Part shown: in pieces, positions 11,730 through 16,798 of the stretch
Numbering within the stretch: position 1 is the stretch's first letter
Layout: the number at the start of each line of letters is the position of its first letter
DNA from: a virus
Lineage: Duplodnaviria; Heunggongvirae; Uroviricota; Caudoviricetes
Reading direction: 5' to 3' (one strand)
Virus record (IMG/VR): IMGVR_UViG_2778261639_000004
Location: 1 to 20,754 of that record
DNA: 20,754 bases
The notes under the pieces: model-generated
What the model was told of the DNA's origin: nothing
The model's input: only the letters and a program-made list of their open reading frames with translations
Databases searched by the model: none
Position numbers and translations under genes: made by a program

Positions 11730-12115
11730 TTACTCACCAACAGCCCACCAACTGTAATTCATCGATACTGTGGAACTGGTTGATGCAGTTCTGTAAGCGG
11801 AATTAAAACCGGTTAATGTTGGACCTTCTGCGGTCATCACGAATCCCCGTCCAGCACCTAAAGGTGCACCACCATCACCAGAATGAGTAAGCATGGCGCA
11901 GTCCACTTTTTTAGGAAAAGGGATGCTGAATGTAATTCTCATTGTTTGCGTCGATAATGTCGGCGTAACCGCACCTCGACCATATTGCAGGATTTTACCG
12001 TTGGGTAATTTCATCCATCCATCACCACTGGCAAAAGAAGCCATATCCGGTATCTGATTTTCCCCTGTTCCCACATCCCGTTTTGCCGCTTCTCCCAAAC
12101 CAACGTTTAAGAAAA
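11730..12115 (-). CDS. Alternative tail-fibre C-terminal cassette, promoterless in this orientation
   Basis: - strand frame is open from the right crossover site to the stop at 11730. The frame across the site encodes …VGLGE…, matching …LGLGE… at the left site, so inversion would fuse it to the constant part of the fibre gene. Confidence 0.65.
12090..12115. other. Right crossover site (TTCTCCCAAACCAACGTTTAAGAAAA)
   Basis: Matches the Salmonella hixL sequence as I recall it at about 19/26 positions, including the AAACC…GTTT core; inverted relative to the left site; 56 bp upstream of the invertase start. Confidence 0.6.
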
Positions 12116-12170
12116 TGCAGAGATTACGGCTAACTGGCATCATCCCCGGTTTTTATTCAGGGGATCCATC

Positions 12171-12743
12171 ATGCTTATTGGCTATGTCCGCGTATCAACA
12201 AATGACCAGAATACAGAATTGCAGCGTAACGCGCTGGAGTGCGCAGGATGTGAACTGATTTTTGAAGATAAAATCAGCGGAACGAAATCAGCCAGACCGG
12301 GATTGAAAAAACTGCTCAGAACGCTATCAGAAGGAGATACGCTGGTTGTCTGGAAGCTGGACAGACTGGGCAGAAGTATGAAACACCTGATCACGCTTAT
12401 TGAGGAATTGCGGGAAAAAGGTGTTAATTTCCGTAGTCTGACGGACAGCATTGACACATCAACACCCATGGGGCGTTTCTTTTTTCACGTCATGGGAGCT
12501 TTAGCCGAAATGGAACGTGAATTAATTGTAGAGCGTACACTGGCCGGGCTGGCAGCAGCACGCGCACAAGGACGCATTGGCGGACGTCGCCCGAAGTTGA
12601 CAAAAGAACAACATGAGCAAATAGCGAGGTTGATCGAAAATGGCTACAGCAGGAAACAGTTGGCAATTATTTACGATATCGGTGTATCGACGATTTATCG
12701 TTATCATCCTGTAGAGAAGCGCCAAACTCAATCTGAGCTGTAA
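12171..12743 (+). CDS. cin: Serine-recombinase DNA invertase, Hin/Gin/Cin/Pin family (190 aa)
   Basis: N-terminus MLIGYVRVSTNDQNT with the catalytic Ser in the VRVST context, VVWKLDRLGRS, and a C-terminal HTH (GRIGGRRPK…GVSTIYRY). Adjacent to the invertible segment. The symbol cin is chosen from the P1-like context; Gin and Pin are close relatives and cannot be told apart without alignment. Confidence 0.9.
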   Translation: MLIGYVRVSTNDQNTELQRNALECAGCELIFEDKISGTKSARPGLKKLLRTLSEGDTLVVWKLDRLGRSMKHLITLIEELREKGVNFRSLTDSIDTSTPMGRFFFHVMGALAEMERELIVERTLAGLAAARAQGRIGGRRPKLTKEQHEQIARLIENGYSRKQLAIIYDIGVSTIYRYHPVEKRQTQSEL

Positions 12744-13178
12744 TTCTAATGCCGCGTCGGTGTAATTTATCTTGATAGAATAGGTACATTTATCGCGCGG
12801 CACATCAATTCGATGTATCTAGCGCCTGCTGACCGCTAATGAAAACTGTTCTCGAAATGTTGTCCCTAGTCCGAGACTAGGGTATCACCTCTGGAAAGCA
12901 TACGCAGAACCTTTTTTAACCCAGGGTGCCCAGCCTTTTTGCTGCTCGCCTTATTCGCAAAAATTAGCTCACATCCTGCGCTTTCAAGTGCTTTTCACTG
13001 CATAGCTGTGTTTTGTTCATTTGTCTATATGCGTACATAGCCTATTAGCATATTTTCTGCCCACTATCGTTATTTATTGCAAGCTACAGGTTTTAATTAA
13101 CAAAACCAGTGTGTGTGGAAATCACAAAGTGCATACCGTTCTCAAATGTTGTTCAACTTACTGTTGTATAGGTAAAAA

Positions 13179-13442
13179 ATGACATTTTATGTACATATCG
13201 TGATGTTATCCCTTCTTGGTGGGGTGTATTCGTATTTGAGTGGGCTATGTGAAAACCGTTACGAGTCTTCATGCAAGAAATTGCTGGCCGAATGTATTTC
13301 CGCCGTACTTGCTGGCTTTATTGGCATGTATCTCGCGGAATATAAGGACATGAATGAAAGCCTTCAGAGCTGCATGGTTCTTATTTTCAGCGCCAATAGC
13401 AGGCTTATTATTGAAGGTTCCAAAAGTCGGTTGAATAGGTAA
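13179..13442 (+). CDS. Possible small membrane protein (87 aa, two hydrophobic segments)
   Basis: Only ORF in the invertase-holin spacer; weak AGGT ribosome-binding site; hydrophobic stretches MLSLLGGVYSYLSGL and ISAVLAGFIGMYL. May be non-coding. Confidence 0.3.
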   Translation: MTFYVHIVMLSLLGGVYSYLSGLCENRYESSCKKLLAECISAVLAGFIGMYLAEYKDMNESLQSCMVLIFSANSRLIIEGSKSRLNR

Positions 13443-13466
13443 GTCTCTTAAGCAACAAATGACCGG

Positions 13467-13490
13467 TTGAGAAGTTACTTTGCATACCAT
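13467..13490 (+). promoter_or_regulatory. Candidate activator-dependent late promoter: ttgagaAAGTTACTTtgcaTACCAT
   Basis: Same 9-mer AAGTTACTT (13472-13480) with the same 4-bp spacing to a TAnnnT hexamer (13485-13490) as at 8434-8452; lies 29 bp upstream of the holin start. The -35-like TTGAGA is only 12 bp from the -10, so sigma-70 alone is unlikely to use it. Confidence 0.4.
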
Positions 13491-13518
13491 TACCTCCTGA
13501 CAACGTAGGAGGGAACTT

Positions 13519-13848
13519 GTGCTTGACACACAGGAATTAGCTCCAGTTGCTATTGCGCTCCTGCTTTCAGTAATTGGTGGGATAGGCACGTTCCTGATGG
13601 ATGTCCGAGACGGTCGCCAGTCTGGCAATTTGTTGGGATTGGTTACGGAGATCTTTGTTGCAGTGACAGCTGGCGCGGTGGCGTACCTATTGGGGCAACA
13701 CGAGGGCTGGGAGTTATCAATTACGTACTTAATGGTAACGATAGCCAGCAATAACGGTCATGAGGTGATTTCAGGGATGAAACGAGTGAATATCGATAGC
13801 ATTCTGAATGTTCTTACAAGTTTGGTGAAAAAGGGAGGTGGGAAATGA
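13519..13848 (+). CDS. lydA: Holin (109 aa; P1 LydA-like)
   Basis: GTG start with AGGAGGGA upstream; two to three hydrophobic helices and a charged C-terminal tail (KKGGGK). First gene after the invertase, as I recall for P1. Confidence 0.65.
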   Translation: MLDTQELAPVAIALLLSVIGGIGTFLMDVRDGRQSGNLLGLVTEIFVAVTAGAVAYLLGQHEGWELSITYLMVTIASNNGHEVISGMKRVNIDSILNVLTSLVKKGGGK

Positions 13849-14288
13849 TTGGCTGGGGTGTATGCGCTCTTGCGTTAGCCTTAGCCGATCGCTATTTGCT
13901 AAAACGCAAGGACATCACGCATTTAGAACTTGGTGATGTGGAAATTAAACCGGGTTTCATCCGGGTGCCGTTCAAATACCGGTCTAAATTCCCGTTTTTG
14001 CGCGGCGCAACGGTCAGATATTGGATCCGCGATGTTCAGAAGCCGACGACAGTGATTGAAGGCGAACAACGTTGTCTGACGTCGGCTGAACAGGGCGAAA
14101 ACAGTGAATGGTTGTACATACCCACTGAATATATGGGTAAAGGAGAGCGACTGTGGAATTTCAACGTCATGGTTACGCATGGCGACTCGTTCATTAACCC
14201 GTTGTATCGGATTTTCCCTGTTACTCAGCAAATCCGCAGAAGTTACGTAATAAATCTCGCACAGGATGTGTCAGATGACGAAAAATAA
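13845..14288 (+). CDS. lydB: Antiholin or lysis regulator (147 aa; P1 LydB-like)
   Basis: ATGA overlap with the holin stop; single N-terminal hydrophobic segment; symbol by synteny and length. Confidence 0.55.
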   Translation: MIGWGVCALALALADRYLLKRKDITHLELGDVEIKPGFIRVPFKYRSKFPFLRGATVRYWIRDVQKPTTVIEGEQRCLTSAEQGENSEWLYIPTEYMGKGERLWNFNVMVTHGDSFINPLYRIFPVTQQIRRSYVINLAQDVSDDEK

Positions 14289-14877
14289 GTATGCAACGGT
14301 CGATTTTGACCAGGTTAATGAAAAGGGGCTGAAATCCCTTATCGCGGCGATCAATAAAACTGGTGTTGCGGTAATTGAGGTTGACTCCAGCAACCGCGCA
14401 ACAACGAAAGATGGCGTTAAAGTTAAAACCGCAAAGCTGGTTCTTAACGACGGACAAATTCTTGCCATACAGGTAAACGATACTGGCGATATATCGTCTG
14501 TGAAACTGAATGGAAAAGCTATTCCTAACGCTCAGTCGCCGGATATCAAGACGCTTGGTACCGTCATGGGACAGGCGGCCCGCAAAAACTCCGCAAAATT
14601 CCAGAAATCACTGATCGCCAAAGCGAAGCGTGTTGCCAATCCGGTAGACAAGAAACCGGCAGTTAAATCCAACTTTCAGCGCCTGCAAGAAGCAAAACAG
14701 CGGAATGCTCAGGTGGTTGCCGCTTATAAATCAGCGCAGAACTCGGTGTCTTTCAATCAACAGCAGATCACTGATTTGCGGGCGAAGCTGGATAAGGAGA
14801 CAGGCCGACTCAATAACGAAAAGGCCCGAAATGGCGAACTCAAACGCCGTCTTAAGCAACTGAAAGCAGGAAATTAA
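14275..14877 (+). CDS. hdf: Short paralogue of the downstream DarA-like protein (200 aa; P1 Hdf-like)
   Basis: ATG at 14275 with AGGA 8 nt upstream (the ATG at 14266 has no spacing to it). Residues ~50-120 align with residues ~140-215 of the next protein (…NDGQILAIQV… / …SDGQTISILF…; …RKNSAKFQK… / …EKNSAKFQR…). Confidence 0.6.
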   Translation: MTKNKYATVDFDQVNEKGLKSLIAAINKTGVAVIEVDSSNRATTKDGVKVKTAKLVLNDGQILAIQVNDTGDISSVKLNGKAIPNAQSPDIKTLGTVMGQAARKNSAKFQKSLIAKAKRVANPVDKKPAVKSNFQRLQEAKQRNAQVVAAYKSAQNSVSFNQQQITDLRAKLDKETGRLNNEKARNGELKRRLKQLKAGN

Positions 14878-14878
14878 C

Positions 14879-16798
14879 ATGGAACAGTTCAATATCAATA
14901 AAGGGGTGACGATCAAGCCTGGGCTTGACGTGCTTCCCCCGCCAGTGACTGATGATGAATATCGCGCATTAATGGCCGGTGAGGACCGCTATCTGATGAC
15001 GGAATCCAACACCCTGGAGGAAATCGAGGCTACGTTCTTCTATGACACGCCGATCCACTGGTGCGCTACGGATTTACTGGAGGCGATTAGTTCTACTCGT
15101 TTGCAGTTACACCGGACCATGCAGGCATTTGTCCGGGCATTGAACCATAAGCTGAATGGTACCGGAATCTCTGCGGGGAGTGATAAAACGGGGGATGTTG
15201 CCCAGAGCGGCGCGCGCGAGATCGGCGGCGCTGAAATTGGTCGGGCACGTAACGTTAACGGGCTGCCGGTCCTGCCAGCCATTATTCCGCTCAGTGATGG
15301 TCAGACTATCAGCATTTTGTTTCATAGCCCGACAGCGGAAAACCGGATCACCAATAGCGATACGCTGGTTGCTTTCCAGTTCTTACTGAATAAAAAAGAC
15401 GTTACTCACACCGTTGCTCCGATGAGTGGACGTGATATGACGCTGGCGCAGGTCACCATGAAACTTGCCAACCTTGCAGAGAAAAACTCGGCAAAATTCC
15501 AGCGTGCGCAGAAGAAGAAAAAAGCCCTGGTTGATGAAATAACCCAACTACAGGCTGACAGTGACCAGAAAGAGGATGCCATGAGCGACCTCGCGGATCA
15601 GGTGGCAGCGGTAGAAGGCCAGAAGGCAGATCTGGAGCAGAAAATTAACGCGGTTGCTTCGGAAGCGGATTCTCTTTATCAAGAAAATGAGCGTTTGCAG
15701 GCGGAGATTGATCAGCTCAATCGCACTGGTGGGCGCGATACCATTGCTCCAGCGGGGATGACTGGTGGGCACTCTCGCGCGCTGACGGATCGCCTTGCCA
15801 GTATCAAAAATCGTATGCATATGGACGGGGAAGCGACGCTCAGTAATGGTGCATCAATGAAGCAATTCATTGGGGATGGCGAAGGGTATATCCAGTTAAC
15901 CGATCCGGATGGCAGCGTATACATGATCAAGGCTAAATCCATACAGGGTGTGGACATGGCAGATGCGATCGGCAAGCTGTTTAAAGCCTATAAAGCGGGT
16001 GATGTATCGGAATATCTGGTCCAACCAGAAGAACATAAACCGGAAAACGTCGAACCTGAACCAGCGGAGGATACCGGTAGCTCTTCGCCTGAACCAGAAG
16101 TCTCTGTAGGTGCATATCGATATGCCCTGCAAATGCGTCCGGCGGCCCCTGGCGCAATACCTGAAGGTAACAAAGCGATTCTGCCGCGCCCTGATGAAGG
16201 TGATCCGTATTATGAATATGCACGCTACGGCATTGCTACTTACGATACCCCGCTTTCTGATCAGCAAATGAGTGAGTACGACCTGAAGTTATTGCCTCGC
16301 GAGGATTCTTTCGACTTCCTGGCGAAGACACTTACTAATGGTCCGTTTGGCAAATATGCACAAAAAGCTCTGGAGCTGGCCACCAGCTCACCAGACGAGT
16401 TCCGCGTAATGCTGAAGACTCAGTTTCAAAAAACTTTCCCCAATATTGCGTTTCCGGGGGGCGCTGGCACCGAGAAAATGGTGCAGAGCATGATCAATGC
16501 ATTGCAGGCCGAAGTCGGTGAGATTACTCAGCCAGAACCGGCCCCGGCACAGCCTGATGAAACGGTTAGCGAAGCAGATGCAGAGGCTAATAAAGCCATT
16601 GAATATCTCAATAACGTGATGGATATGCAAAGCACTGACATGGCGGAGATCCGTAACGCCCGGGGCAATGTCCGGGAAGCGATTGCAGCCCTTCAGGCTG
16701 CCGGACGTTTTGAGGAAAACGAAGAGCTGGTTAATGGCGCTGCTCGCCACCTGGCTGATCTGCTGGTAGCAATCCAGAAAGCGGGGGTAGCGGCATGA
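14879..16798 (+). CDS. darA: Antirestriction, capsid-internal protein (639 aa; P1 DarA-like)
   Basis: Long ORF starting 1 nt after the upstream stop; internal coiled-coil segment (QLQADSDQKEDAMSDLADQVAAVEGQKADLEQKINAV…); Pro/Glu-rich linker. Symbol by synteny, length and the Hdf paralogy; not checked against a database. Confidence 0.65.
   Translation: MEQFNINKGVTIKPGLDVLPPPVTDDEYRALMAGEDRYLMTESNTLEEIEATFFYDTPIHWCATDLLEAISSTRLQLHRTMQAFVRALNHKLNGTGISAGSDKTGDVAQSGAREIGGAEIGRARNVNGLPVLPAIIPLSDGQTISILFHSPTAENRITNSDTLVAFQFLLNKKDVTHTVAPMSGRDMTLAQVTMKLANLAEKNSAKFQRAQKKKKALVDEITQLQADSDQKEDAMSDLADQVAAVEGQKADLEQKINAVASEADSLYQENERLQAEIDQLNRTGGRDTIAPAGMTGGHSRALTDRLASIKNRMHMDGEATLSNGASMKQFIGDGEGYIQLTDPDGSVYMIKAKSIQGVDMADAIGKLFKAYKAGDVSEYLVQPEEHKPENVEPEPAEDTGSSSPEPEVSVGAYRYALQMRPAAPGAIPEGNKAILPRPDEGDPYYEYARYGIATYDTPLSDQQMSEYDLKLLPREDSFDFLAKTLTNGPFGKYAQKALELATSSPDEFRVMLKTQFQKTFPNIAFPGGAGTEKMVQSMINALQAEVGEITQPEPAPAQPDETVSEADAEANKAIEYLNNVMDMQSTDMAEIRNARGNVREAIAALQAAGRFEENEELVNGAARHLADLLVAIQKAGVAA

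Follow-up and report, generated by a model that had tools for sequence, protein, structure and literature searches.

P1 is a plasmid prophage in which three holins and a SAR endolysin have to be kept silent over many generations, and neighbouring genes (invertase, lydC, sim and par) are transcribed while the lysis genes must stay silent. For the holin gene lydA this raises the question of how a transcript that enters from upstream is told apart from one that starts at the gene's own late promoter. We considered this question for a stretch of 20,754 nucleotides from IMG/VR record IMGVR_UViG_2778261639_000004, referred to as the window throughout. A preliminary description, prepared from the letters alone, had placed a late promoter and a hairpin immediately in front of lydA and had suggested that the hairpin would hide the Shine-Dalgarno sequence in read-through transcripts only.

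The lysis locus, its upstream neighbours and the late promoter

As judged from sequence matches, the window is assigned to a P1-like phage (Punavirus). Positions 12100 to 14900 are 98% identical to vB_EcoM-813R1 and, from 12875 on, 93-94% identical to P1 itself, and the dar operon (lydA, lydB, hdf, darA) is syntenic with that of P1-like phages (93-98% identity). The genes that matter here are the following.

12171-12743, plus strand: serine invertase gene (Hin/Pin-like; Pfam Resolvase and HTH_7), co-directional with lydA
13179-13442, plus strand: lydC, a holin paralogue (LydA-type; Pfam PF16083), directly upstream of lydA
13519-13848, plus strand: lydA, holin of 109 amino acids with a GTG start, 99% identical to P1 LydA (Pfam PF16083)
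13845-14288, plus strand: lydB, antiholin, the next gene of the dar operon (Pfam PF16084, E = 5e-102; P1 annotation)

In P1, a putative early promoter has been predicted in front of lydC, and both lydA and lydC are lethal when cloned (PMC9025707). A terminator scan found no terminator-like site between the lydC stop (13442) and the promoter that follows (from 13472 on), and only weak sites were detected after the invertase gene (12749-12763) and inside lydC. Read-through RNA, the existence and amount of which are assumed here, would thus likely have lydC as its nearest source, with the invertase gene as a possible, more distant one. The preliminary description had named the invertase gene as the origin of read-through; it is indeed co-directional with lydA in the window, but the nearest source is lydC. 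In P1 itself cin is divergent, whereas the present invertase gene points towards lydA, and lydC is the more general source because cin points the other way in P1. Salmonella and Citrobacter relatives carry a co-directional invertase gene directly 5' of lydA and have no lydC.

Two further observations concern this upstream region. What remains of the 5' part of P1 cin, decayed and interrupted by two in-frame stops (MLIGYVRI*TNEQNTAMQ*...), is present at 12872-13051 on the minus strand, adjoining the intact Hin/Pin-like invertase gene (12171-12743) on the opposite, plus strand. The invertase module has thus been replaced relative to P1, so that the new invertase gene is co-directional with lydC and lydA. 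Furthermore, according to published plasmid tables, an intact lydA-lydB-hdf fragment is carried on pUC18 (PMC9025707), which is compatible with silencing of lydA and not diagnostic, because lydB is present and the orientation of the insert is not given.

The promoter in front of lydA consists of these elements.

13472-13480, plus strand: -22 box of LPdar, AAGTTACTT, a 9-bp inverted repeat and Lpa site, identical to the annotated '-22 signal' in AJ000741 and AF234172
13485-13490, plus strand: -10 hexamer TACCAT of LPdar, the annotated minus_10_signal in P1 records
13497-13499, plus strand: predicted late transcription start, the 7th to 9th nucleotide after the -10 hexamer

All coordinates given previously proved correct (AAGTTACTT at 13472-13480, TACCAT at 13485-13490, CCTCCT at 13493-13498, AGGAGG at 13507-13512), and the call of a late promoter was borne out, since the motif at 13472-13490 coincides with LPdar as annotated in two independent P1 records (AJ000741 and AF234172). 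Being identical to it in sequence and position, the promoter was already known; it does not differ from the annotated P1 LPdar, which is kin to LPs, LPsit, LP23, LPpac and others. On this sequence identity, 13472-13490 is taken to be the Lpa-dependent late promoter LPdar that precedes lydA, lydB, hdf and darA. Its 9-mer AAGTTACTT conforms to the Lpa-site consensus AAGT[G/T]ACTT, is centred near -22 and is identical in LPdar and LPs, while the -10 hexamer TACCAT conforms to TANNNT and is located 4 bp 3' of the repeat (spacer TGCA) without a -35 element. The 4-nt spacing between 9-mer and hexamer is common to eight P1 late promoters. P1 has been reported to possess 11 such promoters, the 9-bp inverted repeat being the Lpa-binding site (PMC10695390); the lpa gene itself is outside the window.

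The preliminary description had spoken of a second motif copy and had advised a search for more. Exact matches to AAGTTACTT-N4-TANNNT occur at 8434 and 13472, two against 0.01 expected from shuffles of the window. When up to two mismatches were allowed, four matches were found in the window against 1.46 expected, which is not significant. The first exact copy is also annotated in P1.

8434-8452, plus strand: late promoter LPs, before the tail-fibre genes

Sigma-70 holoenzyme starts transcription 6-9 nt downstream of the -10 hexamer. The start predicted near 13497 agrees with this geometry as well as with the name '-22', as a 9-mer centred on 13476 places +1 at about 13498.

The hairpin over the lydA Shine-Dalgarno sequence

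Directly behind the -10 hexamer, folding predicts a hairpin with the following arms.

13493-13499, plus strand: 5' arm, the anti-Shine-Dalgarno sequence CCUCCUG
13506-13512, plus strand: 3' arm UAGGAGG, containing the lydA Shine-Dalgarno sequence AGGAGG (13507-13512)

The arms form seven pairs (six Watson-Crick pairs plus G13499-U13506) around a 6-nt loop. The predicted energy is -9.1 kcal/mol (z = -3.45), a value not reached by any of 200 dinucleotide shuffles. The hairpin persists in contexts of 46, 121 and 141 nt; no Rfam family matches in the window. The complementarity of CCTCCT to the holin Shine-Dalgarno sequence AGGAGG that had been pointed out before therefore corresponds to a stable predicted hairpin, supported by folding and by the gene-wise ranking given below. 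The helix covers the whole Shine-Dalgarno sequence, which ends 6 nt before the GTG start at 13519, and its 5' arm begins 3 nt after the end of the -10 hexamer (13490). A late transcript with the predicted start at about 13497-13499 cannot form the hairpin, because this start falls inside the 5' arm, of which the late RNA would keep 2-3 nt at most. Ribosomes finishing lydC would not melt the structure, as the lydC stop is situated 51 nt before it.

The arms include a perfect inverted repeat of 6 bp, spaced by 8 bp, which could also be bound by a protein such as a repressor or the invertase, or could terminate transcription arriving from upstream. Termination was rejected since the stem lacks a following T-run, and nothing was detected at this place by the terminator scan; a binding site is not annotated here in the richly annotated P1 record, and one of the two arms simply is the Shine-Dalgarno sequence. 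We therefore regard this explanation as most improbable.

How unusual the occlusion is was assessed by calculating, for 90 annotated P1 coding sequences, the energy needed to open the Shine-Dalgarno hexamer when pairing with upstream sequence only is considered. The gene lydA ranks first with 10.6 kcal/mol, followed by pmgC with 10.4 kcal/mol; the median is 2.2 kcal/mol. Used as a thermodynamic proxy, truncation of the RNA at the predicted late start reduces the opening cost by 4.8-5.6 kcal/mol for lydA and by 5.7 kcal/mol for pmgC, while in 60 other genes with a recognisable Shine-Dalgarno sequence the effect of a corresponding cut has its 95th percentile at about 2.5-2.9 kcal/mol. When the 60 nt upstream of the predicted start were shuffled (mononucleotide shuffles), the occlusion was equalled in 1 of 300 cases for lydA and in 0 of 300 for pmgC. 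With dinucleotide-preserving shuffles in a 150-nt context the fraction was 0.075 for lydA in the window, and this test was not significant for most lydA relatives; it discriminates weakly, because any long RNA offers a G-rich Shine-Dalgarno sequence something to pair with. For lydA on its own, the statistical case is good without being overwhelming.

The complementarity might be coincidental, a strong AGGAGG happening to lie 8 nt from pyrimidine-rich letters where transcription from a conserved promoter begins, and holin control being purely transcriptional (via Lpa) with LydB in addition. By simple arithmetic, in about 1% of genes the Shine-Dalgarno sequence would have a perfect 6-mer complement no farther than about 30 nt away, and about 25 genes were scanned; the value of 0.075 in the 150-nt test points in the same direction. 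The local 60-nt shuffle test (1 of 300) argues against coincidence, as does the fact that the two genes ranking highest among 90 are both located directly behind late promoters. Further evidence on both sides comes from the comparisons below.

The preliminary description had also expected that a late transcript devoid of the anti-Shine-Dalgarno arm would be the one from which holin is translated. Relief of masking is indeed predicted, but the Shine-Dalgarno sequence does not become fully free: its computed opening energy is about 5.5 kcal/mol in the late transcript versus 10-11 kcal/mol in read-through RNA, the remaining cost stemming from GGAG, which can pair with CUCC at 13541-13544. From the difference of 5 kcal/mol we would guess that the hairpin changes translation by one to several orders of magnitude. 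In the predicted fold of the late leader (13508-13544) the GTG start lies in a CUUGUG/CACAGG helix, and this fold is no better than those of shuffled sequences; it may keep holin translation modest even late.

Other late promoters and relatives of lydA

A second case of the same arrangement was detected at the beginning of the window.

144-162, plus strand: late promoter LPsit, AAATGACTA-CTCG-TAGAAT, a diverged third motif copy, annotated as LPsit at the homologous P1 position
153-187, plus strand: hairpin masking the pmgC Shine-Dalgarno sequence (GAGG, 185-188), 14 pairs, -18.1 kcal/mol, z = -7.0
194-760: pmgC, the first gene of the window

Here the -10 hexamer (157-162) is itself part of the 5' arm, the 3' arm ends in the pmgC Shine-Dalgarno sequence, and the predicted start at about 169 falls in the hairpin loop, leaving a late pmgC leader that is predicted to be unstructured (z = -0.7). 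In Cronobacter phage JK004, the PmgC protein of which is 75% identical, the -10 hexamer TAGAAT is changed to TAAAAT and a matching C-to-T change is found in the 3' arm (G-C to A-U); the hairpin has a different loop and a stem of 13 perfect pairs. The two substitutions compensate each other, in a helix of which a promoter element is part. P1 thus appears to use the masking design at least twice, at LPdar/lydA and at LPsit/pmgC.

The pmgC case bears on the idea that the hairpin acts on the late transcript itself, either as a 5' stem-loop stabilising the mRNA or as a brake on the holin that sets lysis timing, which needs a late start upstream of 13493. Stem-loops at the 5' end stabilise mRNAs in Escherichia coli, lysis timing is known to depend on holin dosage, and hairpin-containing RNA could originate at a sigma-70-like site (TTTTCA-16-TATTAT, 9 of 12 matches) located at 13384-13411 inside the 3' end of lydC, provided that it is active; such sites are not commoner in the sequence than in shuffles. 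However, the 5' arm at lydA begins only 3 nt after the -10 hexamer while sigma-70 starts 6-9 nt downstream, and at LPsit a role of this kind is impossible, the -10 hexamer being inside the arm. We consider it very unlikely that the hairpin serves the late transcript.

For eight P1 late promoters placed next to a gene start, we determined the relief, i.e., the Shine-Dalgarno occlusion that is lost on truncation at the predicted start (values in kcal/mol).

pmgC: 5.7
lydA: 4.8
pacA: 3.6
gene 23: 1.8
gene 26: 1.7
lyz: 0.0
R: -0.05
prt: -0.7

The four largest values belong to promoters with a co-directional, non-late upstream neighbour (simC, lydC, lpa and parB), sim, lpa and par being presumed by us not to be late in P1. 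Of the remaining four promoters, that of R has a late neighbour and the others a divergent one. Such an ordering has a probability of 1 in 70 by chance, and the margin between gene 23 and gene 26 is small. Of seven P1 late promoters subjected to the shuffle test, only those of lydA and pmgC were individually significant. Masking as a general rule for all late promoters was rejected, since truncation brings no relief at LPs, LPprt and LPlyz. At LPs, whose upstream neighbour, gene 16, is itself late, no anti-Shine-Dalgarno sequence was found, and truncation at the predicted start changes the opening energy by -0.05 kcal/mol.

Three observations on these promoters are added. A GC-rich hairpin, CACCCCGTCCGCAGGGCGGGGTG, occupies positions 8410-8433, after the stop of gene 16 and before the -22 box of LPs; its stem is not followed by a T-run, and the P1 annotation does not list it as a terminator. 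At LPpac (P1 OP279344.1, 84038-84092, outside the window), the heptamer CTTTCGT, in overlap with the spacer and the last part of the -22 box, is the complement of ACGAAAG at the Shine-Dalgarno sequence of pacA. At LP23 (P1 OP279344.1, 54210-54280, outside the window), CTCTTCC directly 3' of the -10 hexamer is complementary to GGAAGAG at the Shine-Dalgarno sequence of gene 23. The complementary heptamers at LPpac and LP23 are suggestive, neither being individually significant.

Among P1-type copies retrieved from IMG/VR and metagenomes, the block reaching from GAGAAGTTACTT into lydA, and with it the 5' arm, is invariant in 202 of 209. The exceptions comprise A13492C (twice), which would add a C-G pair, C13493A (once), which disrupts the outermost pair, a single change located outside the stem, and a GTG to ATG change of the start codon. 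Because of this invariance, covariation for the lydA hairpin was not seen among the approximately 200 punaviral copies, a point that may be counted in favour of coincidence. Upstream of about 13460, in turn, at least six unrelated sequence variants occur among the P1-type copies. In P1-like phages, homology ends abruptly about 10 nt 5' of the -22 box, and beyond this point P7, RCS47 and Ro157c2YLVW either carry unrelated sequence or lack lydC/cin altogether. The position of the break implies that promoter, leader and lydA behave as one exchangeable module.

Invariance together with the promoter is also what would be expected if CCTCCT were a DNA-level part (discriminator or initially transcribed sequence) of an Lpa/SspA-dependent promoter and the pairing were incidental. 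CCTCCT does lie between the -10 hexamer and +1, where the sequence affects promoter kinetics. In contrast, the other P1 late promoters carry GAGGCT, CTCTTC, CCGTTC, GTGTCT, CGCGTC and CGGTTA at this place, and since these sequences are unrelated there is no shared promoter element at the position of CCTCCT. A DNA-level role is quite improbable on these grounds.

More distant lydA homologues (36-80% protein identity) were compared as well. In Citrobacter-type plasmids and viral contigs, ATGTAACTT-TCAA-TAAAAT (or TACACT) is followed at once by CGGACC...GGTCCG, a hairpin that contains the Shine-Dalgarno sequence GAGG and has an energy of -15.4 kcal/mol (z = -5.85; 0 of 200 shuffles reach it). Its stem is kept while the loop varies between members. 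Judged by sequence, this is the arrangement of P1 built from unrelated letters. In the JK004/Salmonella lineage, the anti-Shine-Dalgarno sequence of lydA (ACTTACCTTT, GCTTACCCTTC) is located 5' of the -22 box, its pairing partner being GAGGTGAGT or GGGGGGAGC, and two of the eight pairs of the helix are changed on both sides (three sequences only); late lydA RNA would lack the anti-Shine-Dalgarno sequence in this lineage, too. Three relatives (L093, L094 and L095) have recognisable promoters and no convincing anti-Shine-Dalgarno sequence, and in L171, L094 and the Pantoea type terminator-like hairpins are found just upstream instead. Leaders of lydA homologues for which no convincing Lpa-type promoter could be placed, i.e., those of the D6 type, the Pantoea type and L090, were left out of the comparison. 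The masking device is thus best described, from the available sequences, as recurrent among lydA relatives and not universal.

Some relatives deserve a separate remark. In D6-like Escherichia coli plasmids and contigs (L088 and L229-L247), the 60 nt 5' of the lydA homologue contain a long hairpin, GGAAATAACA...TGTTATTTCT, that ends exactly at the Shine-Dalgarno sequence GGAGGGG and has the palindromic CTAAGTTAG in its loop; a P1-type -10 hexamer could not be placed in these leaders. In positions 1-60 of IMGVR_UViG_2597489893_000001 (L077), 28 unrelated bases are joined directly to ACCTCCTGACAACGTAGGAGG, so that the promoter is missing and the hairpin kept, which probably reflects a contig end or an insertion junction. 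A scan of genome contigs yielded only one P1-like locus and one irrelevant match.

With regard to coincidence, the relatives devoid of any anti-Shine-Dalgarno sequence speak for it. The non-homologous Citrobacter-type hairpins, placed like that of P1 with respect to the -10 hexamer, and the compensatory changes in the JK004 lineage speak against it, and taking both sides together we hold a chance origin of the pairing to be rather unlikely.

Proposed mechanism, known systems and meaning

The reading that we prefer for lydA, with a probability of about 0.6, is a translational insulator of the T4 gene e type, in which read-through transcripts would be silent and late transcripts translated. The underlying anti-Shine-Dalgarno logic, put forward in the preliminary description, has found computational support in folding, gene ranking, truncation and shuffle tests, the LPsit/pmgC case and distant lydA relatives. 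In this model, RNA entering from upstream (from the lydC promoter, the invertase gene or other sigma-70 starts) would contain both arms and fold the hairpin of -9 kcal/mol, the ribosome-binding site would be hidden, and holin would consequently not be made early or in the lysogen. Once Lpa activates LPdar, RNA polymerase would start at about 13497-13499, inside the 5' arm, and the resulting late mRNA without the anti-Shine-Dalgarno sequence would allow translation of lydA. Rho-dependent polarity on the untranslated read-through RNA may follow from this in addition, which is speculative.

In T4, a helix in early read-through RNA hides the ribosome-binding site of gene e and reduces lysozyme synthesis about 100-fold, whereas late promoters located in the DNA encoding the 5' strand give rise to translatable RNA; soc, 49 and I-TevI are controlled in the same way (PMC3014915). 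The predicted situation at P1 lydA is alike in that a helix sequesters the Shine-Dalgarno sequence in long transcripts, that the late promoter is in the DNA encoding the 5' strand, so that late RNA would be devoid of this strand, and that the protected gene is a lysis gene, harmful if expressed too early. It is different in that the phage is unrelated and the gene encodes a holin instead of an endolysin, that P1 uses sigma-70 with Lpa and a -22 inverted repeat instead of gp55/gp33 and TATAAATA, and that the helix is shorter (7 bp) and known in P1 from sequence and folding. A further parallel is provided by phage lambda, in which the 'sdi' stem-loop at the 5' end of the S gene modulates ribosome access at the holin gene and hence lysis timing. 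Like sdi, the lydA structure is an RNA structure at the 5' end of a holin gene; unlike the hairpin proposed for P1, sdi sets the ratio of holin and antiholin start codons within one transcript and does not discriminate between transcripts with different 5' ends. No mention of a masking structure for P1 was found in the searched literature or in the detailed GenBank annotation of P1. While the promoter was already known, the hairpin masking the Shine-Dalgarno sequence in P1 is therefore new as far as found.

On a more tentative level, P1-family phage-plasmids may systematically set late promoters inside or 3' of a masking 5' strand just where prophage-expressed or early genes (lydC, sim, lpa, par) are transcribed into the borders of late operons. 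Such a general, promoter-selective translational insulator would have arisen independently of that of T4 and may add Rho polarity that silences the late operon in the lysogen.

If true, the model proposed for lydA would explain how this gene is kept silent without an upstream terminator, and also why free recombination affects all the sequence upstream and leaves the promoter-leader block invariant. It would also matter for the engineering of P1 vectors, in which insertions 5' of lydA or pmgC might otherwise be assumed to be polar or toxic, and would provide a simple, testable rule for late-operon boundaries in P1-like phage-plasmids, including those that carry resistance genes.
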